A DNA stretch of 63,186 nt, counting the filler, from Asterionella formosa (taxonomy: Eukaryota), in the NCBI GenBank assembly GCA_002256025.1. It is 15 parts of 15 records of this genome, joined end to end, with 100 filler letters (N's around TTAATTAATTAA, not from the genome) between each part and the next. Parts side by side here need not be neighbours in the genome. Positions count along the whole stretch, not along the records: positions 1 to 16,494 come from NKIB01004854.1; 14 more parts are not named here. One strand, written 5' to 3'. The notes beneath the pieces are model-generated. The model ran no database searches. It had not been told where the DNA came from and saw nothing but the letters and a program-made list of their open reading frames with translations. A program made the translations under genes and the position numbers. Shown here one piece after another: positions 1,581 through 58,100 of this stretch. How positions within the stretch are numbered: position 1 is the stretch's first letter; each line of letters starts with the position of its first letter.

Positions 1581-3905
1581 AATATCGCCCCTAATTTTGT
1601 CGCCCCTACGCACCATCATGCTCAAATTGTAAATGAGCATGGTGTACAAGCAGAGTACGCAAGGAATGGACTCTGTCCTTATCATCCAGACATTCAGCTT
1701 CGTAAAAAGAATGTGATTGGAGTTGACGAGACTGTGCGAGACAGCTGCCCTAAATGCGATCGTCTGAATACCCAAGGGCCTACTTCTCCAGCGACTCCAA
1801 TGCCTCAGCAGTCTCCTTCTTTGCCAGCAATCCAAATTCAAACCACTTCAAGTTCGTGTCCGATTGCTGCAATTCTTTCAAATATGCAAATGAATGAACG
1901 GAATGCTGACATTCAAATAAAAGGTTGTTCAGAACTTTGTGACTTGGCTGCGAATAATGACAACAAGGTGACGATTGCTGCAGCAGGAGGTATCACTACG
2001 ATTCTGTCTGCAATGAAGGCTCATTCCTCAAATGCTAATGTACAACACTATGGTTGTGGAGCACTTATGAACTTGGCTGTTAATGACAAGAACAAGGTGA
2101 CGATTGTTGAAGCAGGAGGTATAACTACGATTCTGTCTGCAATGAAGACTCATTCCTCAAATGCTAATGTACAATACGAAGGTTGTGGAGCACTTCAGAA
2201 CTTGGCTTTGAGAAACGACAAGAACAAGGTGACGATTGTTGAAGCAGGAGGTATAACTACGATTCTGTCTGCAATGAAGACTCATTCCTCAAATGCTAAT
2301 GTACAATACTATGGTTGTGGAGCACTTTTTTACTTGGCTGTGAATGACAATAACAAGGTCACGATTGCTGATGCAGGAGGTATCACTACGATTCTGTCTG
2401 CAATGATGACTCATTCCTCCAATGATGATGTGCAACACTTGATGAAGACTAATTCCTCTAATGCTACTGTACAACAGTATGGTTGTAGAGCACTTGGGAC
2501 CTTGGCTACTACTAATAAAAGGATCAAGCTGATAATTGCCGATGCTGGTGGAGAAGATGTAATTAAATCTGCTATTCGAAATCACTCATCCAATGCTGGT
2601 GTCTCTGAAAAAGGTAATGAAGCACTTCGTATCTTTCAACCAGTCTCAACAACATCCAAGAGATCGCATCTTCCTTCCTTAACAACTCCAACACCAAGCA
2701 TTGGTAATTCAACTGATCTCATTTCTGAAGGTCAATCGAAAATGAAGGAAGCAATGTACAATGAGAATTCAAGACCAATTGAGCTTTCTGTTGAATTCAT
2801 TACTTATTGTACAAACAACTTTGATGAAGAGAGAAAACTTGGTCAAGGAGCTTTTGGTGCTGTCTACAAAGGCAAGGATAACAATCGGTATTTTGCTGTT
2901 AAACGCATTCGTTTCAATATTGCTGTTGAGAAAGATAAGGTGAAGGAAGTTACCAAGGGTTTTAAAAGAGAATTGCAGGTGAGCTCATTTGTGTATCAAA
3001 TATTGCATTTTGTTTCAAGTCTTTATGTTTCTCATTCCACTGTCATACTATTTCAGGCATTGAAGAGGTTCCGACACCCCAATATTGTAACTTTGTATGG
3101 CTATCACTTGTCCTCTGGTTCACCTAATCAATACCTTGTGTTTGAGTATGCATCCAAGGGTTCTCTTGATAAATTTTATGAGAATGAAGAAAGCAGAGCA
3201 ACTCTCTCAAGTGAGATCAGACTTCAAATCATGTTCGACATTATTCGTGCCATCCACTTCCTTCATACTGGTACAGAGGACAATCTTGGTCTGTTTCATC
3301 GTGATATCAAGTCAGCTAATATCTGCCTTGATCAGAACTATACTGCCAAGCTGATTGATTATGGTCTAGCCAAATTTGTTCTTGTAGATGACTCCAATGA
3401 AACCAGTGCAAATTCTTTTTCAGTTCAGATCACATCAAATTGTGGAGTGTTTGGGTCACGTGGCTACATATGTCCATGGTATTCTAGGGGAGGTAAAAAA
3501 TTTGAAGCATCATGTGATGTTTACTCATTTGGCATTGTCATGATTGAGCTTGTGACAGGCTGCCTTCAAAATGATAAGACAATGTTGGGAGATTTCTACG
3601 AACAATACTTCCCAGATGAATTTGAAGGAAACATTAATGAGGCATTGGAGTTGGCAATTCTAAAACTGGTAGAAGATTTTGATCCTCTAGCAAAGAATTG
3701 GGATGATGGAATTCTGGCCTCGGTGTGTACATTAGCCATTCGTTGCATTCAGAAAAATCGCAAAAAGAGGCCAACAACTATTAAATTGGTTGAAGAGTTG
3801 GCGTGTTTGGTTGAAGAGTTGGGTCAACTTGTAAGTGCAACAGATCATTATGTTGGATGTGAATCGTCACAATTGATAATTGCCTTAGACAAACATAAGG
3901 TTTAG
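1581..3905 (+). CDS. Zn-ribbon + armadillo-repeat + IRAK/Pelle(RLK)-like Ser/Thr kinase; 5'-truncated by LTR; one intron 2979-3056
   Basis: Frame open from 1581 (CPYHPDIQLRKK...CPKC motif). About five to six 43-44 aa ARM repeats. Kinase motifs GQGAFGAVYKG, AVK, HRDIKSAN, DYGLAK, DVYSFG. Removing the 78-nt GT..AG intron restores FKRELQ|ALKRFRHPNIV. Confidence 0.85.
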   Translation, partial: NIAPNFVAPTHHHAQIVNEHGVQAEYARNGLCPYHPDIQLRKKNVIGVDETVRDSCPKCDRLNTQGPTSPATPMPQQSPSLPAIQIQTTSSSCPIAAILSNMQMNERNADIQIKGCSELCDLAANNDNKVTIAAAGGITTILSAMKAHSSNANVQHYGCGALMNLAVNDKNKVTIVEAGGITTILSAMKTHSSNANVQYEGCGALQNLALRNDKNKVTIVEAGGITTILSAMKTHSSNANVQYYGCGALFYLAVNDNNKVTIADAGGITTILSAMMTHSSNDDVQHLMKTNSSNATVQQYGCRALGTLATTNKRIKLIIADAGGEDVIKSAIRNHSSNAGVSEKGNEALRIFQPVSTTSKRSHLPSLTTPTPSIGNSTDLISEGQSKMKEAMYNENSRPIELSVEFITYCTNNFDEERKLGQGAFGAVYKGKDNNRYFAVKRIRFNIAVEKDKVKEVTKGFKRELQVSSFVYQILHFVSSLYVSHSTVILFQALKRFRHPNIVTLYGYHLSSGSPNQYLVFEYASKGSLDKFYENEESRATLSSEIRLQIMFDIIRAIHFLHTGTEDNLGLFHRDIKSANICLDQNYTAKLIDYGLAKFVLVDDSNETSANSFSVQITSNCGVFGSRGYICPWYSRGGKKFEASCDVYSFGIVMIELVTGCLQNDKTMLGDFYEQYFPDEFEGNINEALELAILKLVEDFDPLAKNWDDGILASVCTLAIRCIQKNRKKRPTTIKLVEELACLVEELGQLVSATDHYVGCESSQLIIALDKHKV

Positions 3906-12929: not shown

Positions 12930-13047
12930 TTGGCAGCACGAGTAAAAGGAGTTTTTTCAACACAAAAAACACTTTTCACTCGAGCAAGGAAAAAGTCGCT
13001 CGTCAACACAATAGACAACTTTCATTACATTCAAGAGAACATTGACA

Positions 13048-15087
13048 ATGCTAAGAGCATTTGGTCGAAAGAAGATAGAAACAGAATTTGAGAAATATGT
13101 CAAACGGTTGAAAGCGAATGATTCCAGTTTGACTACATTTGATCTCGATAAAAATATCATTGGTGTTGATGGAGCCAAGGCCATTGCAGAGGCACTCAAG
13201 GTCAATACTGTCTTGACTACACTTTATCTCGATAGTAATTCAATTGTCGTTGATGGAGCCAAGGCCATTGCAGTGGCTCTCAAGGTCAATACTTTCTTGA
13301 CTACACTTGATCTCGGAAGTAATTCAATTGCTCTTGACGGAGCCAAGGCCATTGCAGAGGCTCTCAAGGTCAAAAGTGTCTTGACTTCACTTAATCTCAG
13401 AGACAATTCAATTGGTGTTGACGGAGCCGAGGCCATTGCAGTGGCTCTCAAGGTCAATACTGTCTTGACTTCACTTAATCTCGGAAGTAATTCAATTGGT
13501 GTTGACGGAGCCGAGGCCATTGCAGAGGCTCTCAAGTTCAATACTGTCTTGACTTCACTTAATCTCGGAAGTAATTCAATTGGTGAAGAACTAGAAAATG
13601 AAATTCAAAAACAGCTTGATGACAAGAGGAATGATCAACCATCATTCAGGGGTGATTTTCAGACAAATGCACTCGTAGAGGAAATGATTGAAAAGGATAG
13701 AACAGGTCATCATATTACTGATTATGATGGTTTGCCAAAGGTTATTACAAATCAAAAAGTCTGTTGGCCATTCATTGAATGTAAGCATAAGGGTTGGGAA
13801 CCAAATCAGTCAAGAAGAATCATGTCATATTCAAAAGTGTGGGTAGATTCAAAATGTTGCAGTGAACCAACAGACATACACAAAGAAACATTAGTTGTTC
13901 TTTCAAGTCCCAACTTCAGCCAACCCTCACATATTCTTCTTAAGGCATATCGATCTGTGATGAATTTATCAATATCAAATGATTTTGTTGATACTGACAC
14001 CTTTCTCAGGTCGATTACCATGACCAGGTATGGCATATTGCTCTGCAATAGATCAATTCCAGAAAACCCTGGCAGATCTGGTATTGAAATGTTTTTTCCA
14101 AAATGGATCTCAAGATTTTGGAACAAAGGTATTGATAATCTTTACTGGCGACATGAATCCTTCAAAATAAATTCAAGAAACGGCAGTGAACGTGAAGCTG
14201 TCCTGTACTTCAAAATTGGGGCTTTATGCTACAAGATTCCATTTTGTAAATATTTGTATGGCCATGCTCTTATATATGGTACAGGTGGCACTAAGAAGGA
14301 TATTGTAATGGGAATGGGACTTCTGCATGAAGCAGGGAATGAGCTTTGTATTGCAGAAGCCTTCTTTGAACTAGGTGTCCTTTATGAGCATGGTGTGATG
14401 GGAAAAGATGAACAATGCATAGCCAAAGACTATGTGATGGCTCAAGGCTTTTATGAAGACTCGATAAAAGCTGCCTTTGAAAATATTCATGATGAAAATA
14501 AATCCGTTTGGATTCCACCAATTGGAATAATGAATCAACTGCTTCATGTTGACAGCGTACATTTGCAAGAAGATTCAGTACATAATGATGCAGGAATGCA
14601 TTATTCTTGGATCATTCTAGGTCATTCTTTCCTGTTTGCTACTGCAGCAACCCTTGCAAGCGGCTCTCAACCTTTTCACTACTCACTTCTACTGTTTTTT
14701 ATTCCCTTACTTGGCATTCTCCTGGCATATTATTCCTATTTAGATAGCTATTTTGCATTGGGAGTAATATCAAGAAACCAAGAAGATGTCGATTTAATGG
14801 TGCAAAGAAAATTTCATGCATACACACTTATCTTGGAACAAGCACAACATCATGGCAGCAACGATGATGATTTAGTTTTTTTATCCAATGAACAAAACCG
14901 TTGTATAAAAGAAAAAGAAGATGTCATTTGCAGATTTGTGAACCATCATATGTTGGCATATTGGCAAATTTTTATCTTTTTTTTTATAGGGTGCATCTGG
15001 GCTCTACTTCTTGTGAATGAGATTTATTCACGTTACTTTGAGTGCTCTTACTGGTTTTATACATGTAAGCTTCCTCCCTATGAGTAG
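13048..15087 (+). CDS. RI-like/NLRC3-like LRR + Sel1-like repeats + C-terminal 3-TM domain protein
   Basis: Single ORF from ATG 13048. Six 28-aa LRRs (LKVNTVLTSLNLGSNSIGVDGAKAIAEA). Sel1-like YGHALIYGTGG / FELGVLYEHG. Three hydrophobic helices at the C-terminus. Confidence 0.88.
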   Translation: MLRAFGRKKIETEFEKYVKRLKANDSSLTTFDLDKNIIGVDGAKAIAEALKVNTVLTTLYLDSNSIVVDGAKAIAVALKVNTFLTTLDLGSNSIALDGAKAIAEALKVKSVLTSLNLRDNSIGVDGAEAIAVALKVNTVLTSLNLGSNSIGVDGAEAIAEALKFNTVLTSLNLGSNSIGEELENEIQKQLDDKRNDQPSFRGDFQTNALVEEMIEKDRTGHHITDYDGLPKVITNQKVCWPFIECKHKGWEPNQSRRIMSYSKVWVDSKCCSEPTDIHKETLVVLSSPNFSQPSHILLKAYRSVMNLSISNDFVDTDTFLRSITMTRYGILLCNRSIPENPGRSGIEMFFPKWISRFWNKGIDNLYWRHESFKINSRNGSEREAVLYFKIGALCYKIPFCKYLYGHALIYGTGGTKKDIVMGMGLLHEAGNELCIAEAFFELGVLYEHGVMGKDEQCIAKDYVMAQGFYEDSIKAAFENIHDENKSVWIPPIGIMNQLLHVDSVHLQEDSVHNDAGMHYSWIILGHSFLFATAATLASGSQPFHYSLLLFFIPLLGILLAYYSYLDSYFALGVISRNQEDVDLMVQRKFHAYTLILEQAQHHGSNDDDLVFLSNEQNRCIKEKEDVICRFVNHHMLAYWQIFIFFFIGCIWALLLVNEIYSRYFECSYWFYTCKLPPYE

Positions 15088-15317
15088 GACCAAGCCCTTC
15101 CAGTGCTGGGTGTGATGACCATGAAGCACATGGTACGCATAATCCTATGAAAGTCATGGAATAGTAAGGGTCAGGGTTACTTTAATAGCTACTGTTGCAA
15201 GTTTGTAGTAGTATAAGACACCAGTTTTTTAATTGAATTGCAGCAAGTGTTGTTCACTATGGATGTGTTGTCTAAAACCCTAAAACACAATGATGATGAT
15301 CTCAACCTAACCCTAAC

Positions 15318-15353: not shown

Positions 15354-16443
15354 AAGGTTGTGGCCCTGCAGTTACGCATTGCCAGGTCTGTTTTTTTTCA
15401 AAATAATTTTTTGATGTACTTCAATCTACACATTACGGACAACTAATAAAGTAGACCAATTTGCATATGCTTAGATACAGTCATTCCTCGACTTGAGAGT
15501 ATGATCTAGTACCGGTATATCCAGATATGGTAAGGACATCATTTCTGGAGTGAAGTGGCAGTTATCCCTCTTGGAATCATAACTATCCAAAAGCTTTAAA
15601 AAAAATCTACAAGGGATATCTGCCACTTTTCTGCAGAAGTTAAATCCTGACATTATAGGGTACACAGCTATCTATTTCATTCTTCATGAAACCCCGTAGA
15701 TGTAGAGCAATTCTCCTACAAAAAGTCGACCTGATCGGCTTTTCAACAGTCGCCAAAATATTGGAATCAAAATTTGTGTATGCAAAATGTTCTTGTCTAC
15801 TTAGAGTCTTGCGTAGGTATGTTTCGTTGAATAATTCTCAGTCCAAAAAGATTCCAGGGTAAGTTCCGGCGTCACTACCGGTACACATATTCTGATTGGT
15901 TGAATTGAATATACTCACCTGCTCCAGATTCGCTGAAGTATCCCGGTCTTATAAAATCTCGCTCGCCAGCCACACTTGAACTATACGTATTAGGTGTACT
16001 GAAAAAGCAGTACTGGTACTACTGGTAGTTTCATCTTGTCTTCCATCATGATGAACCAAGATTATGTAATACCTAGTACTCCTAGTACCAGTAGGTCTAT
16101 GGTGGTGCAATGTGGTGCAGCGACAAAATGACGTCAGCAAGGAGTGCCTTACCGGTAGTTAAAAATTCATTACCGGTAGTAACCTATATACATGATACAA
16201 AATGCTTGCAATACTTTATTAGTACCGGTATGTCCCATTACATGTATGTACCGGGTGGCCTACGGCCGTTGGCTACTACAAAATACATATCTTATATGAA
16301 TCTGATCGTGATCCTATGTAGAAAATATCACTACGGTAGTGCAGGCCGTAGCACGGATTTTGTAAGTGGGTAGTCTGATGGTGCAATTTTGGTGTCTCTA
16401 AGTAATAGTGGTGCAATCGGTGGTGCAATTGTGGTGCAAATGA

Positions 16444-16494
16444 TAGGGTTAGGGTTAGGGTTAGGGTTAGGGTTAGGGTTAGGGTTAGGGTTAG
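16444..16494 (+). repeat. Telomere, (TTAGGG)n
   Basis: TAGGG + 7 perfect TTAGGG + TTAG running to the contig end, G-strand pointing outward; GGTGCAA-rich telomere-adjacent sequence at 16379-16440. Confidence 0.93.
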
Positions 16495-16594
16495 NNNNNN
16501 NNNNNNNNNNNNNNNNNNNNNNNNNNNNNNNNNNNNNNTTAATTAATTAANNNNNNNNNNNNNNNNNNNNNNNNNNNNNNNNNNNNNNNNNNNN
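16495..16594. other. Artificial contig linker (first of 14)
   Basis: N44-TTAATTAATTAA-N44 (stops in all six frames); others start at 17623, 18750, 35332, 36459, 37586, 38713, 39840, 40974, 42101, 43228, 44354, 60935, 62061. Confidence 0.98.
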
Positions 16595-27141: not shown

Positions 27142-28884
27142 ATGCTACCCACCACCATCAAGTCCTACTGCGGATTTGCATTAGACACGAACTACATGGT
27201 GGAACCATTTCGTATTTGCAGCAGCATTGCCAACAACACAGCCAGCTGTGCATCAAAGTCGGTTCTCGAGTCTGTTGGTTGCTTTTGGCAATCAGGGTCC
27301 TGCAGTCCCACCAAGGCTGGATTTGAGGGGTATTGTTCGTCGAAAGTAACTTCAACTACTTGCTTTGCGACACCTGTTCAACTATACACAGATGCTTGTG
27401 TCTGGTACCGAGTGGAAGTTGCTCTTAACGCTTTTTGCGGATTTCCTTTCGACAAAAACCCGTGGACGTATCCTCCATCGCTATGCAGTATCAAAGCGAA
27501 AACCGCAGGGGAATGCGAAGGTACTGGATTCCTATCTTCTTCATTTTGTATTTGGAAAGGAGACTCGTGTGAATCTGCCCCAAGCAACATCCAATTCGCC
27601 AACGAGTGCTCGTCGTTCAGTAATGCCGGAAAATGCTATGGTTATCGAGGTGGCGACGGAAACGGATTGTGCAAATGGTATGAGCCAACCAGGCCTCCCA
27701 CAATGTCTCCTACCCTGCACCCCACTGTCAACCCAACGTTGTCGTCCATTCCGTCTAGGTCTCCTTCAGTGGTCCCTTCCAAATCATTGAACCCGACTTT
27801 ATCTTCCATTCCGTCGCGGTCGCCTTCACTGATGCCTTCGATTTCGTCCTTACCTTCAAATGATCCGTCACCTGCTCCAACTTCGGCTCCTTCTGCTCGC
27901 CCAACACCCCGACCCGCGAACCGACTAGACGTTGCCCCAATTCAGTTGCTAACACCAAATCCGACGCACCAACCGACTTCAAATCCTACTCGTCCGCCAT
28001 CACCCTTTCCAACCAACCTTCCCTCAGCGATTCCGACTATAGTTTTGACTGAAAGACCAACTCAACGACCGACTCGCGCGCCGACCGTCTTAATTACGAT
28101 TTCGCCCATTGCTCCAAGTCGGTCACCTTCCGCAGTACCGTCTACAGATCCCACATTCACTCCCACTTCACTGCCTTCGAGAAAACCGTCAGCCTTGCCG
28201 TCCAATCAACCGTCGTTTTCACCTGCTCGATCACCGTCTGCAACACCGTCTGAATTTCCGTCAGCCGTCCCATCTAGATCGCCCACCGAAACTCCAACGC
28301 AAACTCCTTCTTTCTCGGATGCTCCCAAACCTGAAGCGACGAAGGACTCACCTGGCATGGGTGCCTGGACCATCGCAGCGTTTGGTGTTGCCGGTGCAGC
28401 AGTTGGAGGAGCTGGTTGCTGTGGAGCTTGCTTTTGGTTATCTAAAAAGAAGGATGAATCGGCAGATAGGAATGACACTGGTGATGGTTCCCATACAACA
28501 TTTGGGGCATTCAAGGCGAATGTGCGGCCAGATCCTCGTTCAGAAATTTCTATCCCAATTGGAAACAATGACAAAACAGTTGAATGCGACATTTCCAGCC
28601 ATGATGATATACGAATAAATCGTTTTGTTTCGACTGTGGCTTCCACAAAACGCCAGCGAGGGACTGTCCTTGTAACGCCATCCCCGCCAGGTTGGGTATG
28701 GGAGAAATGTCTTCGCAATGTCCTGGGGAAGCAGGAACCTGCCTTCCCAAAAACCTCAACTCTTGAAACAGCGGACGAAAACAAATCCATTGTTATTATT
28801 GGATCTCCACCTGGATGGATATGGGAGAAACTAATTCGCTTTATCAGAAAATCCGAGCTAACGGTTCATCCAGATGGAAAGTAG
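27142..28884 (+). CDS. Type I membrane protein: two Cys-rich repeats, Pro/Ser/Thr stalk, TM helix, cytoplasmic tail; probably has an upstream exon
   Basis: 580-aa ORF; duplicated CGF..D.N..C..W..C..CSS..C..WY module; PSxxPS repeats; TM AWTIAAFGVAGAAVGGAGCCGACFWL then KKK; acceptor-like CGCAG just upstream and no signal peptide in the ORF. Confidence 0.8.
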   Translation: MLPTTIKSYCGFALDTNYMVEPFRICSSIANNTASCASKSVLESVGCFWQSGSCSPTKAGFEGYCSSKVTSTTCFATPVQLYTDACVWYRVEVALNAFCGFPFDKNPWTYPPSLCSIKAKTAGECEGTGFLSSSFCIWKGDSCESAPSNIQFANECSSFSNAGKCYGYRGGDGNGLCKWYEPTRPPTMSPTLHPTVNPTLSSIPSRSPSVVPSKSLNPTLSSIPSRSPSLMPSISSLPSNDPSPAPTSAPSARPTPRPANRLDVAPIQLLTPNPTHQPTSNPTRPPSPFPTNLPSAIPTIVLTERPTQRPTRAPTVLITISPIAPSRSPSAVPSTDPTFTPTSLPSRKPSALPSNQPSFSPARSPSATPSEFPSAVPSRSPTETPTQTPSFSDAPKPEATKDSPGMGAWTIAAFGVAGAAVGGAGCCGACFWLSKKKDESADRNDTGDGSHTTFGAFKANVRPDPRSEISIPIGNNDKTVECDISSHDDIRINRFVSTVASTKRQRGTVLVTPSPPGWVWEKCLRNVLGKQEPAFPKTSTLETADENKSIVIIGSPPGWIWEKLIRFIRKSELTVHPDGK

Positions 28885-36558: not shown

Positions 36559-37585
36559 GTGCAGAGGTCAATGTCGAAATTATTTCTACTACCGATGCAC
36601 ATGTTAGTCTCCTCAAGACCATTTTTGATTTTAATGCCATTAAAGGCCTGCTCGATCGTGATGATTTCTCGATGGTCTATGACTGTATGCATGGGGTCAA
36701 TGGTCCTTACGCCAAGGCTGTTTTTGTAGGAGAGCTCGGTCAGTCTGAGGACACATGCCTCAATGCCGTCCCTAAGGATGATTTCAATGGAGGACATGCT
36801 GACCCCAATCTCACCTATGCTAAGGAACTCGTCAAATTGCTAGGACTTGATCGAACGGGCGCCAAAATTGACGTTGGTGACGCCAAAGTTCCCTCGTTCG
36901 GCGCTGCTGCCGATGGTGACGCTGACCGCAACATGATTCTCGGGTCTCAGTTTTTTGTCACACCCTCAGATTCCCTTGCGATTATTGCAGCCTATGCTGA
37001 TGTCATCCCATTTTTCCGCACCCAGGGTGGTTTGAAAGGTGTCGCTCGTTCCATGCCTACCAGCGGTGCCGTTGACCTCGTTGCCAAAGACAAAAATTTT
37101 GAACTTTTTGAGACCCCCACTGGTTGGAAGTACTTTGGAAATTTGATGGACTCGAAGGCGCTTTACGGCGGAACCAATTACACTCCGTTCATTTGTGGTG
37201 AAGAGTCCTTCGGAACCGGTTCTGACCACGTGCGTGAGAAGGATGGTATCTGGGCTGTTTTGGCGTGGCTTTCAATCCTTGCGTCTGTGAACACAACAGG
37301 TGAGCCTTTAGTGTCGGTCGAAGACGTCGTTAAGGCGCACTGGGGACGTTATGGTCGCAACTACTACTGTAGATGGGACTTTGAGGGTGTGGATAAAGTT
37401 GCAGCCACCGCTATGATGGATAAGATGCGCAATGATTCTTCTGTCAATACCGGAAGGGCTGTGGGAAAGTATGTTATCGACACTGCTGACGATTTCACCT
37501 ACGTCGACCCAGTTGATGGATCTATTTCTAAGAAGCAAGGCATTCGTTTCTTGATGACTGATGGTTCCCGTGTGGTCTTCCGCCT
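36559..37585 (+). CDS. PGM: Phosphoglucomutase, internal fragment (haplotype A)
   Basis: Frame open across the whole contig; DFNGGHADPNL, metal loop DGDADRN, FETPTGWKYF, CGEESFG, REKDG. Confidence 0.95.
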
Positions 37586-38812
37586 NNNNNNNNNNNNNNN
37601 NNNNNNNNNNNNNNNNNNNNNNNNNNNNNTTAATTAATTAANNNNNNNNNNNNNNNNNNNNNNNNNNNNNNNNNNNNNNNNNNNNGTCTAATTCAGATAA
37701 ACGAGAGACGGAGGAGCAATCTTGTCATGTCTCATTTGGAGAGGAACGAACGCGATCCAACTTTAGTGTTGAACAAAATGTTCTGAAAATGTGGAGTCAA
37801 AGTACCTACCAGGTACTGTTTCCACCAACTACCGGCACCGGTAATATATACTGATTCCATGTTCATGCAGATTTCTTTAACATTTTTATGTACATGTTAA
37901 CCGGTATTATTTTTATGCAAAAGAATTTTATTTTTGCAATACCATAATAACGGCATCCTTAAACGTACCCCCGAGTTTCGCCCTCCCTGCTTCAACACAA
38001 TTATCGTAGACATTCATGTATCTAAGTACCGGTACATGTGCTTCCGTTGAGTCTTTTCAACGGCAATTGGAAGTTTGTATATAAATCTAAGTGCATACAT
38101 TCAAACGTGAATATACATATCAATTCTTCAACATAATGTGTATGTATATCTTCACATGGTTAGAAAGCAAGACTCTGAAGGCCAGCACGGTATACTCGTC
38201 GTAAACAAAACATGTTGCGCGCGTACGACATTTCAAATTTTTGACTGGCGGTAAGTGCCGGTACCGGTATGCGTTCTAATAGGCGGCCGTGCTGGCTGGT
38301 TATGAGTGTGCGCGCTGTTCGTGGTCGTATTTTTTTCTTGCTGCTTGCTTCGTCGTCTCTTACAGTCAGTCAGTCAGTCAGTCATCCAACGCTCATTGTT
38401 GGAATCGTATTGGTTTGCGCACACTGTTTGTTCTACCGCCCAGCACGACCAGGAATCATCAAGGGAACGCACGTACGAAAGGGGAACCATGGAGCACTGA
38501 CGAGAGCAGACGAAGCAAAGATGGGCCATTCAACTATATTTTATGTAAAAATAGAAGCAATGATGGAAATCATCATACATAGGAGTTCCTAAATCAATGA
38601 TTATTTTGGGAGTATAATGCATACCGGTAGTATTTAAGGATATGTGCCTATGTCATTTGATTACCGGTATACTCCAGTAGACTACTGTACTCTACGGAAT
38701 ATTTGTTTATCANNNNNNNNNNNNNNNNNNNNNNNNNNNNNNNNNNNNNNNNNNNNTTAATTAATTAANNNNNNNNNNNNNNNNNNNNNNNNNNNNNNNN
38801 NNNNNNNNNNNN

Positions 38813-39839
38813 GTGCAGAGGTCAATGTCGAAATTATTTCTACTACCGATGCACATGTTAGTCTCCTCAAGACCATTTTTGATTTTAATGCCATTAAAGG
38901 CCTGCTCGATCGTGATGATTTCTCGATGGTCTATGACTGCATGCATGGGGTCAATGGTCCTTATGCCAAGGCTGTTTTTGTAGGAGAGCTCGGTCAGTCT
39001 GAGGACACCTGCCTCAATGCCATCCCTAAGGATGATTTCAATGGAGGACATGCTGACCCCAATCTCACATATGCTAAGGAACTCGTCAAATTGCTAGGAC
39101 TTGATCGAACGGGCGCTAAAATTGACGTTGGTGACGCCAAAGTTCCCTCGTTCGGCGCTGCTGCCGATGGTGATGCTGACCGCAACATGATTCTCGGATC
39201 TCAGTTTTTTGTCACCCCCTCAGATTCCCTTGCGATTATTGCAGCCTATGCTGATGTCATCCCATTTTTCCGTGCCCAGGGCGGTTTGAAAGGTGTCGCT
39301 CGTTCCATGCCTACCAGCGGTGCCGTTGATCTCGTTGCCAAAGACAAAAATTTTGAGCTTTTTGAGACCCCCACTGGTTGGAAGTACTTTGGAAATTTGA
39401 TGGACTCGAAGGCGCTGTACGGCGGAACCAATTACACTCCGTTCATTTGTGGTGAAGAGTCCTTCGGAACCGGTTCTGACCACGTGCGTGAGAAGGATGG
39501 TATCTGGGCTGTTTTGGCGTGGCTTTCGATCCTTGCGTCTGTGAACACGACAGGTGAGCCTTTAGTGTCGGTCGAAGACGTCGTTAAGACGCACTGGGGA
39601 CGTTATGGTCGCAACTACTACTGTAGATGGGACTTTGAGGGTGTGGATAAAGTTGCAGCCACCGCTATGATGGATAAGATGCGCAATGATTCTTCTGTCA
39701 ATACCGGAAGGACTGTGGGAAAGTATGTTATCGACACTGCTGACGATTTCACCTACGTCGACCCAGTTGATGGATCTATTTCTAAGAAGCAAGGCATTCG
39801 TTTCTTGATGACTGATGGTTCCCGTGTGGTCTTCCGCCT
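38813..39839 (+). CDS. PGM: Phosphoglucomutase, internal fragment (haplotype B)
   Basis: Same boundaries and length as 36559-37585; differs only by scattered substitutions. Confidence 0.95.
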
Positions 39840-41074
39840 NNNNNNNNNNNNNNNNNNNNNNNNNNNNNNNNNNNNNNNNNNNNTTAATTAATTAANNNNN
39901 NNNNNNNNNNNNNNNNNNNNNNNNNNNNNNNNNNNNNNNCTATTTTGTGACACTATGATTTTCGCTGTTTTCATTCTGACGTTTTTGATGTATTTTACCA
40001 GTATGCCAATGAATTGCTGAAGGCAATTCCCGCTCCAGCTACCGTCTTCCCATTCGGGTACTTCTTAAGTAATTTTTAGGCTCTAAGTAATTTCTTAAGT
40101 AATTTTTTTTAAAGGGCAATATGGGGCACATCGAATTTTTCGGCAATAAAATTGCCGATTTTAGCATGACAACCAGAATAACGGTAATATGCATAGAATT
40201 GGTACAACAAGCGTAAAACACACGAGAATGATTGTAACATGAAACATCAATGAAAATTGAACATGATGTTTGGAGCAACCAAAGTATGAAATGCGATGTA
40301 ATAAGTAGCATCAAATGAGAAATAGAAAAAATTGTTTTGGGTTAGAAATGAAATTAAAAAATAAGAGTTCCAATGGAGAAGTATGCATTGTGAATCATTG
40401 TAGTACTTACACAGGCCACATTGACTTTCCATCAACACAAAATCGAAGACCGAAAGAAGAATAAAAAAAGCTGAACCCAATTTAGACCTGCATCGTTATC
40501 TAGCGTAAATTTTCGGGTTGCTGCAACCATGCGCATCGCTCTAGCTAGTAGCAGCCTGACACCAGTAGCAGTATTTCCGCCACAGTCATTCCTCTCTGCC
40601 CACCAAACAAGCAACCCTGATCATTCCATTCTGAGCAAGAAGCATGATCGCCACGCTGCTCCAGCACTATTGACTCTCTCTAGCTGAGTATTCATGTAGC
40701 TTCTGATACGAACTTGTAGTAGAAATGTAGCAAAGCGTGTTAGTACAAGAAAAGCATTGCTTGGTGGCAATATTGACATGATTGTCAATGACTATTCAAA
40801 TCAACAAATACGATCAACAACGGCACAATACCACATCTTCAATGAGTAGTCATTGATAAATGCATTGGTTCTTATGTAGATATGTACAATTGAAACAAAA
40901 CGACAGTGCGTAACAACAAACAACGATGGAAGCAATCAAAACAAACCACGGAAGCAATCAAATCGGAAAGTCGNNNNNNNNNNNNNNNNNNNNNNNNNNN
41001 NNNNNNNNNNNNNNNNNTTAATTAATTAANNNNNNNNNNNNNNNNNNNNNNNNNNNNNNNNNNNNNNNNNNNNA

Positions 41075-51012: not shown

Positions 51013-51459
51013 TAGAATATGCCAGTGACTATGAGTTTAGTCTAGAGCAGCTTGCAGATATCAAGCCTGAACATATCCACAAATGGATGGCTGTGAAGAC
51101 TTATGGTAAACCACCAAAATCAAGCCAAAACGAGAATCCAACACATGGTAGATCAACCTCATTGGAATATTGTTACAAGAAGGCGATGTATTATGATTTC
51201 ATGCCACTCCGGCGCCTCTCAACTTGGAATGTCATGACCAACTGTGAAAACCCAACCAGATCTGTGCTTGTTCTTGACCTAATCAAAGATTTAAAGAAAA
51301 AGGACTGCAAGCAAGGAAAAGCATCAGAAGCACGTCGTCCACTGAAAGCCCAAGAATGTACCAACACAATCAATGCACTTCAAAGATGCAAAGACAGTAT
51401 CCGCCGCTTCCAGATGGTTTCCCTATGTTCCTTCCAATTCCACATGGTTGGCCGGATCT
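51013..51459 (+). pseudogene. Crypton recombinase N-terminal fragment
   Basis: KWMAVKTYG, GRSTSLEY, ENPTRS, QGKASEARRPL, FQFHMVGR; DNA closely similar to the copy at ~7990-8505. Confidence 0.85.
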
Positions 51460-52594
51460 TGCTTTCGAACTACCAGTTACATGATTCTTGGGACAAACAT
51501 GTTCCTTGATTGGTTTCTTGTACCGTATAGCCCTGTTGCACACATTACAGATCTTAGATTTCACTGTGTAGTCTAGTATATTTTTTGTGTAGGCGCCAAT
51601 ACAAAAAGCATGTCCACTTACAGAGTTGTACTTATTCCTGCTGGACCACTGCTGCCAGCAGCCCATATCGTAACTAACAGTGAGTCGAGGCATATTCAGT
51701 ACAGACAAGCGATCTGTACCAGTCAGACTGTTCCACAACTGAAAATCACGTCCTTTGTCAGCCCAGTCTCCTCGTTCATGCACATTGAGTGTCAGATATG
51801 ATTCCTCCTGACACGCCTCTTTCATTGCAAGAGCGGTTGCAGTAACTTCAGAGTTTCCTACCAGTTCCTCTACTGCACCAAAGTTACCTTGCGTAGACCA
51901 AAATCCAAAGGTAAATGGAAGATTCATTGCGGAGCAGATGATATCTGCATCTGCTGGTCCCATTCCGGCTTCGTGACAACCCAAAATAAACTTTTTGTTG
52001 ATAGAAAAGTGTTTTGCTTCTATTGCGTTATTTCTTATCTCATCATTTCTGTCTCCATTGCTGTTGCTTCTTGCAGGTTCGAGTTTAGAAATCAGTTTCT
52101 GACAGGTCAAACAAGAGACTTTGAATTCGCTTGCCAAGCCGTAATTTTTGGTAGAGACACCAATCAATGGTTGTTTCATTGTTGAAATCGGAAAGTCAAA
52201 CACATCCTGCTCCAGAAATCATTCACATTGCTGTTCAATGGACAGCTTTTGTTGTCTATTTGATGTAAAGTAAGTTACAAAGTCACAAAGTGATTGTTTG
52301 CAATATTCTTTTACAAATTTATTAACACATCTTTTGCAATACATATCTTCCTGCCGAAATTTCGACAATGTATTATAGTCGATTATATGATTCATGTTCA
52401 GTTGAGCAAGAGCAGTCTGTTTTAATTGGTGACGATGTGATTGCTAGTTCAATTGGTGAAGTGGTTGTTGTAGGGGGACAAAAAAGCATCTTAGAGGTCC
52501 ACCAATTTTGATTTTCATCGGACGCTATATTTCGTCCTCCTTGACCACCAACACCAATTTCGGAAATGAGACGGCTACCACTGGAACTTGGCAT
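51460..52594 (-). pseudogene. DDE transposase fragment (Kolobok / 'Mutator-like' domain)
   Basis: GLASEFKVSCLTC, INKKFILG, LTVSYDMGCWQ..S.SGHAF, KSKICNVC..HVCPKNH.GSSK; truncated at the Crypton junction. Confidence 0.8.
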
Positions 52595-55190: not shown

Positions 55191-58100
55191 TTACATTGAT
55201 TGGGCAAGCTTTAATCCACATGTACATCCCAACATCTTGCATGCACAGTCCATATCCAAAGCACTCTTATCTTCCCCATTCGTTATTTCGGAAGCGTGGG
55301 TTTCATCGTCAAACAATGGCTGCGTAGCCTCACGACTCCTACGACGAAATAGTTTCGCCTTTTCGACTTTTTCGACCACTGAAGTATTGCTGTCAAAATC
55401 AACATGTGGTGTAACTACCGTGGGAACCACGGGGGATGACCATGTGTACATCTCTTCTTCCTCTTCTTCTTCTTGTTCTCCATCCTCCTGTTCCTCATGG
55501 CGCTTTTTGTATATGAATCGCATTGTACCAAGAGAGACAACAAATAGGAAAGCACCACCCACAGATATTGCAATCCAGATGTAGATGCTCACGGCAGCCG
55601 GGGAATTCAAGCTGCCGTTCCCTGCGGTTCCACCTTCCACAGGTGAATTTTTTGACCTCCCGTCTTCAACCGGTGTATAGTTTGTTGACTTGACAGTCAC
55701 CACTTGACTAAATGCAGTGTCTTTGGTCTCCTGAAGCCGTACAACAAGGACAATCCCATTGTCATCAAAGATGGTATTGCATATTGCGGCTAAATCCAAA
55801 TCCCCCACTTTTGTATCTCCCCTTACAAGCATACTTATTATAATATCAGTACCCTGAGCTAGTCGTCGTCGAAGTGTCGACTTTGATAATGATTGATTCA
55901 ACACTGAAACTTTCACGCGTGAGACAGGAGGTACTTGGAGGCGTAACCAGTTGCCCAAAAATGCTTCAGTGGTATTTCGAAATGTCTCCATGGAACTGAC
56001 ATCCATTTCAGCCACCACATGGGCCATAGTGACAGATACATTGCCTTGTAAAGAATACACTTTGGTCAATGCAGGTTCAAGAGTAAAAGCAGATGGGGTG
56101 AATGTAGGATAATCAATAGGAGCAGTTGTAGGGCCCACAGATGGGGTGAATGTAGGATAATCAGTAGGTGCAGTTGTAGGGCCTTCAGTCGGTTCCAATG
56201 TAGGATGTTCAGAAGGAGAAGCTGTGGGTTCCGAAGTCGGTTCCAAAGTAGGATAAGCTGTTGGGTCCGCAATCGGTTCTAACGTAGGTTCCAATGAAGG
56301 ATGCTCAGTAAGTGAAGCAGTGGGATTCGCAGTAGGTTCCAACGTAGGTTCCAATGACGGATGCTCAGTAGATGAAGCGGTGGGGACTATAGTCGGGGGT
56401 TTTGTAGGATAATCAGTTGGAGGTGCTGTGGGTTCTGTAGTTGGGGTCATTGTTGGATCAGGAGTAGGAGAAGCAGTGGGTTTATTAGAAGGTGCCAATG
56501 TAGGATCAGGAGTAGGAGAAGCTGAAGTGGGATTAACGGTCGGTTCAACAGAAGGTGAAGCGCTAGGAGAAGCTGACGGGTCTGCTGTCCTTGTCAACGA
56601 CTTGAGTGCGATCACTTGACTAAAGGAGGTGTTGTTAGTAGCCTGAAGCTGCTCAACAAGGATATATCCCTTGTAGTCAAAAATATTGTTGCACATTGTT
56701 GTCAAATCCAAATTGTCTACTACTGCTTCTCCAGTTACCATCATACTTATTATGATGTCAGTGGCCTGCGCTATTCGTCGACGCAGTGTCGACTGAGTTA
56801 ACAATTGATTCAGCACCGTAACTCTTACGTTCAAAACGGGAGGTACTTGGAGGCGCAACCAATTTCTCAAAAATGCTTGACTGGTATTGAGAAATGTCTC
56901 CGTGAAGCTATCACCCAATTCAGCCCCCACGAGGGCCATAATTACAGATACGTTGGCTTGTAAAGCATACACTACAGCTTTTGTAGGTGCCGGTGTAGGC
57001 GCTGTTGGTATCAAGACCGTAGGTTCAGGTGTAGGAAAAGCTGTAGGACGTAAAGTGGGAATATATGTAGGTTGCATAGTAGGTGAAGCAGTGGGGTTGG
57101 CAGTCGGTTTCAATGTAGGAGAATCCGTTGGAGATGCTGTTGGGTCAGCAGTCGGGCTAGACGATGGATAATCAGTAGGAGCAGCTGTTGGGTCGGCAGT
57201 AGGGGCCGACGTAGGATGCATAGTCGGTGAAGCTGTTGGGTGGGCAGTAGGTTCCAACGTCGGATAATTAGTAGGAACCGCCGATGGTTCGGCAGTAGGG
57301 GTCGACGTAGGATGATCAGTAGGAGGGGCTGTCGGCTCCGCAGTCGGTTTCATCGTGGGATGATGAGTAGGAGAAGCTGTGGGCTCGGTAGTCGGTGCCA
57401 ACGTCGGATGATCAGTAGGAGATGATGTTGGCTCTTTTGTCGGCGTCGATGTGGGTGCTACAGTTGGTGTAGCTGTGGGATCCACAGTCGGGGCTAAAGA
57501 CGGTGCATCGGTAGGAGGACAACTGGGGTCAATAGATGGTGACGACGTAGGTTTAAAAGTAGGAGAACCCGTAGGTTCAGCAGTAGGTGTCATTGTAGGA
57601 TAATCCGTAGGAAAAGCTGTGGGCACAATAGTCGGTGCCAACGTCGGATGATCAGTAGGAGAAAATGTTGGCTTTTTTGTCGGTTTCAGTGTAGGCGAGT
57701 CCGTTGGAGTGGGATTCACAGTCGGAGCCAAAGTAGGTCGATCTGTAGGAAGACAACTGGGGTCAGTAGATGGTGCTGACGTAGGTTCAAGAGAAGGAAA
57801 AGTAGTAAATGTCATTGTAGGATGATCGGTACGAGAAACTGTAGGCACAGTAGTCAATGCAAACGTAGGATGAATAGTAGGAATAGAGGTTGGCTCATTT
57901 GTTATGCTCAATGCAGGTGCAACAGTCAGGGCAGCCGTAGGGATCAAAATCGGTGTCAAAGTAGGTGTATCGGTAGGAGGACAACTTGGGTCAGTAGATG
58001 GTGCCGAAGTAAGTTCAAAAGTAGAAGAAGCCGTAGGGTCAGCAGTAGGTCCCAATGCTAGATGATCAGTAGGAGAAGCTGTAGGCACAGTAGTCTGTGC

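Follow-up and report, generated by a model that had tools for sequence, protein, structure and literature searches.

The window analysed here, a stretch of 63,186 nucleotides (nt) from Asterionella formosa (assembly GCA_002256025.1), carries on its plus strand an intron-less gene whose product combines leucine-rich repeats (LRRs), a Cys/Trp-rich block, Sel1-like repeats and a C-terminal membrane module, and it is this module, together with its resemblance to the bacterial membrane proteins of the 8xMP family, that is considered below. The frame +1 open reading frame (ORF) covers 13042..15087 and ends with TAG at 15085-15087. Its parts, including three putative transmembrane segments (TM1 to TM3) and the helices of an AlphaFold2 (AF2) model, are as follows:

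13048..15087, plus strand: whole coding sequence from the first ATG (13048), 679 amino acids (aa) and TAG, intron-less (ORF list and translation)
13123..13596, plus strand: RNI-type leucine-rich repeats, about 5.5 units of 28 aa (Pfam LRR_6; 84-nt period in the DNA)
13726..13869, plus strand: family-specific Cys/Trp-rich motif block (DGLPKV, CWPF..C.HKGW, RRI, CC), common to the relatives P0002-P0011
14188..14478, plus strand: Sel1-like helical repeats (Pfam in relatives, ESM-Atlas)
14551..14601, plus strand: polar N-terminal half of helix 1, DSVHLQEDSVHNDAGMH, in AF2 helix 18-54; predicted to be cytosolic, beside the stalk
14602..14661, plus strand: TM1, rich in small residues (W..LG(H/Q)(S/A)FLF.AAA.L), YSWIILGHSFLFATAATLAS (AF2, conservation; aligns with TM1 of 8xMP in hhalign and hmmsearch)
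14680..14742, plus strand: TM2 (LL...P.LG...A..S), preceded by a short QPxHY loop, YSLLLFFIPLLGILLAYYSYL (AF2, hydropathy, conservation)
14743..14952, plus strand: polar helical hairpin (stalk) between TM2 and TM3 (AF2 helices 62-117 and 122-179 extend TM2 and TM3; basic residues after TM2; K102 and A105 invariant)
14953..15024, plus strand: TM3 (F..W..LL..E), LAYWQIFIFFFIGCIWALLLVNEI (AF2, hydropathy, conservation; aligns with TM3 of 8xMP)
15043..15066, plus strand: CSxW(W/F)xxxC tail motif (CSYWFYTC in the window), with C180, W183 and C187 conserved in 23-24 of 30 sequences; extracytosolic by prediction

Gene structure and transcription

We take the single-exon LRR-Sel1-membrane gene to be transcribed. 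Public sequencing runs that contain the gene stretch come from lakes, other fresh waters and one algal sample (8 of 20 entries are RNA), and the contigs mapped onto the window stem from four RNA runs, of which two are polyA. In all four, one contig extends from 13556-13562, which lies in the last LRR (residues 170-172), to 14563-14627, and a second one reaches 15100-15219. These contigs are without joints over 13556-15219, the only joints being found inside the LRR array, and most RNA bins in the flanks of the gene are empty or far shallower. Another RNA contig spans 13008-13188 and has four mismatches to the window, so that it may derive from a paralogue. No single RNA contig in the four runs crosses 13188-13556, and we infer the continuity of the transcript across the whole LRR array. 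The amino acid strings quoted in the initial annotation are present in frame +1 of the ORF where it had placed them, HLQEDS beginning at 14560, and a tblastn search confined to the window found no second copy of any of the three parts of the protein.

The LRRs, on account of which the initial annotation had spoken of an LRR protein, do lie in the same ORF as the membrane module, with a Pfam LRR_6 match at E 7e-25 (85.5 bits against a cut-off of 23.4, six stretches). At the DNA level the tandem (13098-13553) has a period of 84 nt and neighbouring units are 85 % identical, which causes short-read assembly graphs to collapse at the array; as a result, 13188-13556 is left uncrossed by contigs, and relatives in the databases may be cut short. 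Thousands of short RNA contigs from the four runs heap up on the array with summed depths of 1e4-3e5, a pile-up that marks the expression, by the organism or its community, of RNI-type LRR genes that belong to a very large, nearly uniform family. Several RNA joints in the array jump 172-257 nt, which corresponds to two or three repeat units.

Architecture of the membrane module

The proposal of a C-terminal domain with three TM segments and a polar helix before the third, made in the initial annotation, is borne out by both the sequence and the AF2 model. The model (36-sequence alignment, mean predicted local distance difference test score [pLDDT] 86.9, predicted template modelling score [pTM] 0.75) consists of three long helices that run antiparallel to one another (fragment residues 18-54, 62-117 and 122-179), the first being half polar and half TM1, the second running from TM2 into the polar stalk and the third returning from the stalk into TM3. 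In a Kyte-Doolittle hydropathy scan (19-residue window, threshold 1.6), TM2 and TM3 show up in almost every relative, and TM1, a less hydrophobic segment with many small residues, is for the most part passed over. Among 30 non-redundant domains, conservation peaks in the TM1-TM2 hairpin (W35, GQAFLF, AA, QPxHY, LL, P67, G70, S77), a pattern that would be unusual in a simple anchor. The invariant residues are L43 and G70 in the hairpin and K102 and A105 in the stalk, while H19 and G30 in the polar half of helix 1 are conserved in at least 70 % of the sequences; W165 and E172 at TM3 and the C-terminal CSxWWxxxC motif are also conserved. A 9-nt in-frame deletion at 14871, in the stalk loop, was seen in RNA contigs of two of the four runs and matches the shorter DDD-LSNEQ form of P0003-P0005; the difference is allelic or comes from a close paralogue.

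How the protein is oriented in the membrane can be predicted from two lines of reasoning: (i) inspection of the printed sequence by eye, a signal-peptide predictor not having been used, revealed no hydrophobic segment at the N-terminus, and basic residues follow TM2, which would place the N-terminus and the stalk in the cytosol, and (ii) acidic residues and cysteines follow TM3, which, with three passes counted from an N-terminus inside, would place the Cys tail outside. Searched by sequence against the PDB, the family profile met only a de novo nanopore at E 7.5, and the relative P0016 met nothing. A four-copy complex prediction of the module, run without an alignment or controls, gave a score of 0.07 (mark 0.32), which speaks neither for nor against self-assembly.

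A eukaryotic family carries the module

A word-based search with residues 470-679 returned 10 proteins, P0002-P0011, which share the Cys/Trp block, the Sel1-like part and the membrane module and start just upstream of the Cys/Trp block, right after the end of the LRRs in the window. The Cys/Trp block has no Pfam family. P0002-P0010 appear to be mosaics, in that blocks identical to the Sel1 part or the membrane module of the window are paired with two or three different types of N- or C-terminal block; this could be due to recombination between paralogues, as in diversifying receptors, or to chimeric metatranscriptome assembly. When a profile of seven C-terminal domains (A1) was searched against 1.84 billion representatives, 47 representative clusters were matched at E <= 1e-3 and 26 at E <= 1e-10; the domain is not a chance ORF. 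Two family members come from the diatom Attheya sp. CCMP212. A word-based homologue search with a second family alignment (A3) at E <= 1 gave seven matches, all of them family members and none labelled by Pfam. By these sequence comparisons, the module marks out a small eukaryotic family that is without annotation and that includes diatom proteins.

The initial annotation had also suggested that the domain was possibly acquired horizontally. None of the 47 profile matches is recognisably bacterial, as judged by sequence and architecture in a library that gives no source organisms, and of 58 pattern matches obtained with A1 in prokaryote contigs none was confirmed; a recent transfer is therefore unsupported, and the module belongs instead to a Sel1-linked family with diatom members.

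The Sel1-like character of the middle part is clearer in the relatives than in the window protein itself, where Pfam Sel1 (PF08238) scores 12.3 bits at residues 401-429 against a cut-off of 30.7. The Pfam scan covered 41 of the 47 profile matches, and 25 of these 41 have Sel1 at E <= 0.01, 10 of them above 30.7 bits, in a region that aligns with that of the window; in ESM-Atlas, the neighbours of residues 196-484 are Sel1 clusters at 0.93. NCBIfam MotX matches, recurrent in the relatives, reflect the Sel1 repeats. On Sel1, diatoms and LRRs together, the literature search yielded only general statements about gene families (PMC7335047).

LRRs were found neither in the 41 representatives scanned with Pfam nor in the 10 relatives from the word-based search. 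Taken together, the family is therefore not one of LRR receptors, and the LRR fusion is so far unique to the window gene. Since its tandem repeats are near-identical, the array looks like a recent addition from the very large LRR family.

Comparison with 8xMP proteins

The initial annotation had pointed to a likeness between the module and 8xMP, the Octameric membrane protein family (8xMP) of Pfam (PF24838, gathering cut-off 30 bits), and the comparison gives this suggestion partial support. Several observations point to a relationship: (i) Pfam 8xMP is matched below threshold by seven relatives at E 7.7e-5 to 6.3e-3 (P0016, 23.0 bits; P0017, 21.9; P0022, 21.1; P0011, 19.6; P0025, 19.5; P0018, 18.7; P0033, 16.8), the match spanning profile positions of about 6-135 of 136 in six of them and 21-90 in P0033, and it is the only Pfam membrane family that recurs across the relatives, DUF2776, EMC3_TMCO1, Synaptobrevin and Piezo anchor occurring at similar E values in one or two relatives each; (ii) profile-profile alignment with true bacterial 8xMP proteins pairs the three TM segments in order, as detailed below; (iii) G70 of TM2, invariant in the 30 sequences, aligns with a nearly invariant Gly in TM2 of 8xMP; (iv) the nearest neighbours in an ESM-Atlas feature search are small bacterial membrane proteins (0.92), and the only named neighbour is an 8xMP cluster (0.90, 180 of 256 features shared), which we rate as a lead only; and (v) the AF2 model of a true 8xMP protein (L117, pLDDT 73.8) has helices at 11-72, 77-119, 128-139 and 143-173, in the same order as the module of the window. 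The layout of an amphipathic helix running into TM1, a loop, TM2 continuing into polar helices, and TM3 is thus seen in the AF2 models and in the hydropathy profiles.

For the profile comparisons, true 8xMP genes above the cut-off were collected from 13 of 400 gammaproteobacterial genomes, 16 of 301 genomes in the phylum of Flagellimonas and 6 of 281 in the phylum of Bacillus testis, and 29 true proteins from the three phyla made up the reference alignment A5. Against it, the differently built family alignments gave hhalign probabilities of 68.6 % (A1), 84.5 % (A3) and 65.9 % (A2), the P values lying between 4.6e-5 and 6.9e-6. Each alignment covers 114-116 columns, and all share one register, with TM1 paired to TM1, TM2 to TM2 and TM3 to TM3. 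Local hhalign runs against the 29 proteins gave 76-92 %, compared with 0.8-18 % for reversed controls, and the observed scores of 39.0 and 47.6 lay narrowly above all 40 block-shuffled nulls (means 23.4 and 25.9, maxima 36.4 and 43.3). With a hidden Markov model (HMM) of the 29 proteins, 12 of 35 family domains reached at least 10 bits, the best 25.9, as did 1 of 35 reversed domains and 2 % of block-shuffled ones.

A number of results weigh against common descent. Neither the window protein nor its C-terminal fragment matches Pfam 8xMP at E <= 1, the window domain scores 1.1 bits with the 29-sequence HMM, and no family member reaches the 30-bit Pfam cut-off, the best being P0016. The A3 profile matched none of the 13 8xMP-bearing genomes among the 400 gammaproteobacterial ones, where its sole match at E <= 0.01 contains stop codons, and the family HMM reached no more than 3.5 bits with true 8xMP proteins, compared with 4.1 bits when these were reversed. 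In hhalign, the 27 members that lack a Pfam 8xMP match gave 52 %, and an alignment with only 10 gammaproteobacterial 8xMP sequences, since superseded by the 29-sequence profile, gave 2.7-29 %; profile methods tend to overrate matches between membrane helices, and one block-shuffled null did reach 43.3. The AF2 models give the module a longer stalk and a shorter N-terminal helix than 8xMP, and no solved structure is close to it: Foldseek, to which the initial annotation had looked for a structural relative, returned no PDB match for the module at E <= 1e-3. An 8xMP profile search of PDB sequences likewise gave nothing relevant, and the E. coli K-12 record holds no 8xMP.

A weak likeness to 8xMP, carried by the seven relatives, the profile alignments and ESM-Atlas, stands; the window's own copy and the reverse searches do not show it. 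On balance, we lean slightly towards true homology of the module with 8xMP and read it as a membrane module that is probably of 8xMP type, in a distant form specific to eukaryotes.

Bacterial 8xMP proteins and their contexts

With a length of about 150-200 aa, the 8xMP membrane proteins of bacteria are small, and they share with the diatom module the amphipathic helix that runs into TM1, the short loop, the passage of TM2 into polar helices, and TM3. The two differ in that the return from the stalk is broken and the first helix longer in 8xMP, whereas the stalk hairpin of the diatom family is longer and continuous; only this family, which is eukaryotic and mostly Sel1-linked, in contrast to the bacterial 8xMP, has the conserved outer Cys motif and the QPxHY loop. 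The joining of a soluble or other N-terminal domain to 8xMP is also a bacterial theme, as three loci indicate: Hexapep (LbH repeats) followed by a C-terminal 8xMP (L163, 835-1926), DUF7701 followed by a C-terminal 8xMP (L154, 1474-2283), and a multi-TM N-terminal part followed by 8xMP and about 57 further residues (L167, 782-2332).

Two of eight bacterial 8xMP loci lie beside defence-type genes. In one, gammaproteobacterial, the 8xMP gene (135.5 bits) follows immediately after two ThsB-type TIR genes of the same orientation (L118, 1462-2827), and in the other it lies about 390 nt upstream of a gene for a SIR2-like and nSTAND NTPase protein, also on the same strand (L123, 1456-3439). The former arrangement resembles Thoeris, with 8xMP standing where the effector would be. 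Of the other six loci, L122 and L124 contain housekeeping genes, L117 a transposase, L121 an M48 peptidase as well as a methyltransferase, and L119 a STAS-like domain, and the neighbours in L125 belong to no family.

We found no paper that describes the 8xMP family or an octamer, so that the word octameric derives from the Pfam family name only. RipA of Francisella is presumably an 8xMP protein; an NCBIfam RipA-type match was found neither for 28 relatives nor for two true 8xMP proteins. RipA is reported in a review to interact with LpxA (PMC12444477), an LbH enzyme, which makes the LbH fusion at L163 notable.

Discussion

We see an even chance that the gene encodes a cytosol-facing LRR/Sel1 protein held in the membrane by a conserved, probably self-assembling module of 8xMP type. 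Such a protein would pass the membrane three times, with its large N-terminal part (LRRs, Cys/Trp block, Sel1-like repeats) facing the cytosol, and its last 175 residues would form, in order, the polar helix leading into TM1, a short outer loop, TM2 continuing into the cytosolic hairpin, TM3, and a short Cys-bearing outer tail, the module being a remote eukaryote-specific branch of the 8xMP type. Self-assembly in the membrane could be driven by the stalk together with the TM1-TM2 hairpin, which carries small-residue and Pro/Gly motifs, and this would display several copies of the cytosolic repeats as a binding platform. Binding by the repeats might then be coupled to an event at the membrane, such as the recruitment or regulation of a partner, or possibly a leak; that the module oligomerises, signals or leaks is what we infer. 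Among the closest known systems, alpha-helical pore-forming toxins (ClyA, AhlB, SmhA) may be named, as well as Sel1-repeat membrane adaptors such as SEL1L/Hrd3, which likewise combine Sel1 repeats with a C-terminal membrane segment. In SEL1L/Hrd3, the repeats are lumenal and the anchor is a single helix, whereas the repeats of the window protein are predicted to be cytosolic and its module is a conserved one of three helices.

The nature of the module can also be explained in other ways. It is possible, if less likely, that it is a lineage-specific membrane domain of diatom-type algae which shares no common descent with 8xMP or SLATT and serves as an anchor or assembly device for Sel1 scaffolds. 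The likeness to 8xMP would then stem from a simple shared layout and the composition of membrane helices, in keeping with database matches that all fall below curated cut-offs, with the empty reverse searches, with 47 proteins of which none is recognisably bacterial and of which the 41 scanned show only Sel1/TPR-type domains, and with the unrelated families (DUF2776, EMC3_TMCO1, Synaptobrevin, Piezo anchor) that appear at similar E values. It accounts less well for the recurrence of 8xMP alone in seven relatives, mostly over nearly the full profile, for the rise of hhalign from 3-29 % to 66-85 % once more diverse 8xMP proteins were included (1-18 % for reversed sequences), for the conserved Gly of TM2 falling on the conserved Gly of 8xMP, and for the independent language-model search that led to 8xMP. 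Membership of the SLATT superfamily of bacterial conflict systems, in place of 8xMP, is highly improbable. It is suggested by PADLOC RTasSLATT (PDLC03794), which matches window fragment residues 79-171 at E 5.9e-5, by SLATT_5 on the last 195 residues of the window protein at E 0.07-0.17 in Pfam and NCBIfam (12.9 bits against a cut-off of 29.5 for PF18160, and 12 against 60 for NF033631), and by a true SLATT_5 protein (L147) with the same succession of a helix, two TM segments, a long polar stretch and a third TM segment. These matches, however, are restricted to the stalk and TM3 and were found in only two of seven close relatives with PADLOC and one of seven with Pfam, and in none of the wider relatives (0 of 41 with Pfam at E <= 0.01, 0 of 28 with NCBIfam at E <= 0.1); hhalign gave 0.3 % against a single SLATT_5 sequence, a weak test with one sequence, since a single SLATT_5/RTasSLATT gene among 300 genomes is too few for a profile, and true 8xMP proteins have no SLATT match. 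We therefore regard SLATT as a look-alike and not as the home of the module, the matches of the window subtype not recurring in the family. The layouts are similar, whereas no link to a nucleotide-signal enzyme was seen for the module; on 14 other long ORFs of the window, a general Pfam scan, which is not a test of partner association, found no SMODS-, SLOG- or TIR-type domains.

Other readings concern what the gene does and how much of it is translated. The initial annotation had envisaged that an LRR/Sel1 sensor is joined to a pore-forming effector as a cell-death receptor, possibly with a horizontally acquired domain; in its full form, with the sensor in the cytosol and a cell-killing effector taken from bacteria, this would be a death receptor of immune type, which we consider unlikely. 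The order of repeats followed by a membrane module is compatible with it, as are the two bacterial 8xMP loci beside defence-type genes, the many mosaic paralogues, which recall diversifying receptor families, and the weak SLATT matches of the window subtype, SLATT being described as a predicted pore-forming effector (PMC7159879). Yet six of the eight 8xMP contexts are not defence-like, the only cellular role that we found in print for RipA, the presumed 8xMP protein, is the LpxA interaction (PMC12444477), no relative is recognisably bacterial or confirmed in prokaryote contigs, and LRRs are missing from the 41 and 10 relatives searched for them. Pore formation and cell death are at present unsupported for the module, and no sign of pores made by 8xMP proteins was met in the literature consulted. 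A wider version, in which the family descends from 8xMP in eukaryotes, 8xMP is an immune-type membrane output and the window gene is a new algal innate-immune receptor, is doubtful for us, and the same doubt applies to its mechanism, by which detection of a pathogen- or stress-derived ligand by the cytosolic repeats (LRR and Sel1) would switch an oligomeric 8xMP-type ring in the membrane and lead to ion leak or cell death. Finally, the LRR array might lie outside the working protein, as a recent insertion or untranslated leader, with a product that starts after the LRRs as in the paralogues. P0002-P0011 do begin where the LRR part of the window ends, no LRR-bearing relative was found, and the RNA contigs break at the repeats, with none spanning 13188-13556. 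We nevertheless hold this to be very improbable, given that the frame is open through all repeats from the ATG at 13048, that the repeats are intact by their LRR_6 match (E 7e-25), that the contigs of all four RNA runs start inside the last LRR at 13556-13562 and not 3' of the array, and that RNA is found over 13008-13188, though with four differences and maybe from a paralogue; short-read assemblies, moreover, cannot cross such repeats, so that database entries of relatives with LRRs would be truncated.

Other features of the window

The remainder of the window is eukaryotic nuclear DNA, according to Pfam on the 14 other long ORFs, and an Rfam search of the window gave no matches. About 1.4 kb downstream of the gene, at about 16430-16550, a (GL)n-coding microsatellite runs into the N block. 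Two 321-aa ORFs at 36672-37637 and 38926-39891, about 2.2 kb apart, have near-identical matches to phosphoglucomutase domains II, III and C-terminal, and the pair looks like a tandem duplication of a partial phosphoglucomutase gene. Further ORFs contain Armadillo repeats (also an LRRK2-type ARM match) and a protein kinase domain (1713-3905, plus strand), and a Mutator-like transposase domain (51370-52203, minus strand, E 1.4e-27). Two very long ORFs in regions of strong GC skew (55191-59465, minus strand, and 27142-28884, plus strand) consist largely of PT repeats, the 1424-aa ORF matching Pfam PT at E 1.8e-60.

Conclusions

To our knowledge, few receptors that couple recognition to the membrane have been characterised in diatoms. 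Even without a link to 8xMP, the present analysis defines the boundaries and conserved residues of an unannotated, conserved and expressed family of membrane domains in diatom-type algae. If the link is true, 8xMP would no longer be purely bacterial but shared with eukaryotic algae, where it would be wired to Sel1 repeats and LRRs, and the family would offer a handle both on the role of 8xMP and on the way in which diatoms couple cytosolic recognition to membranes.

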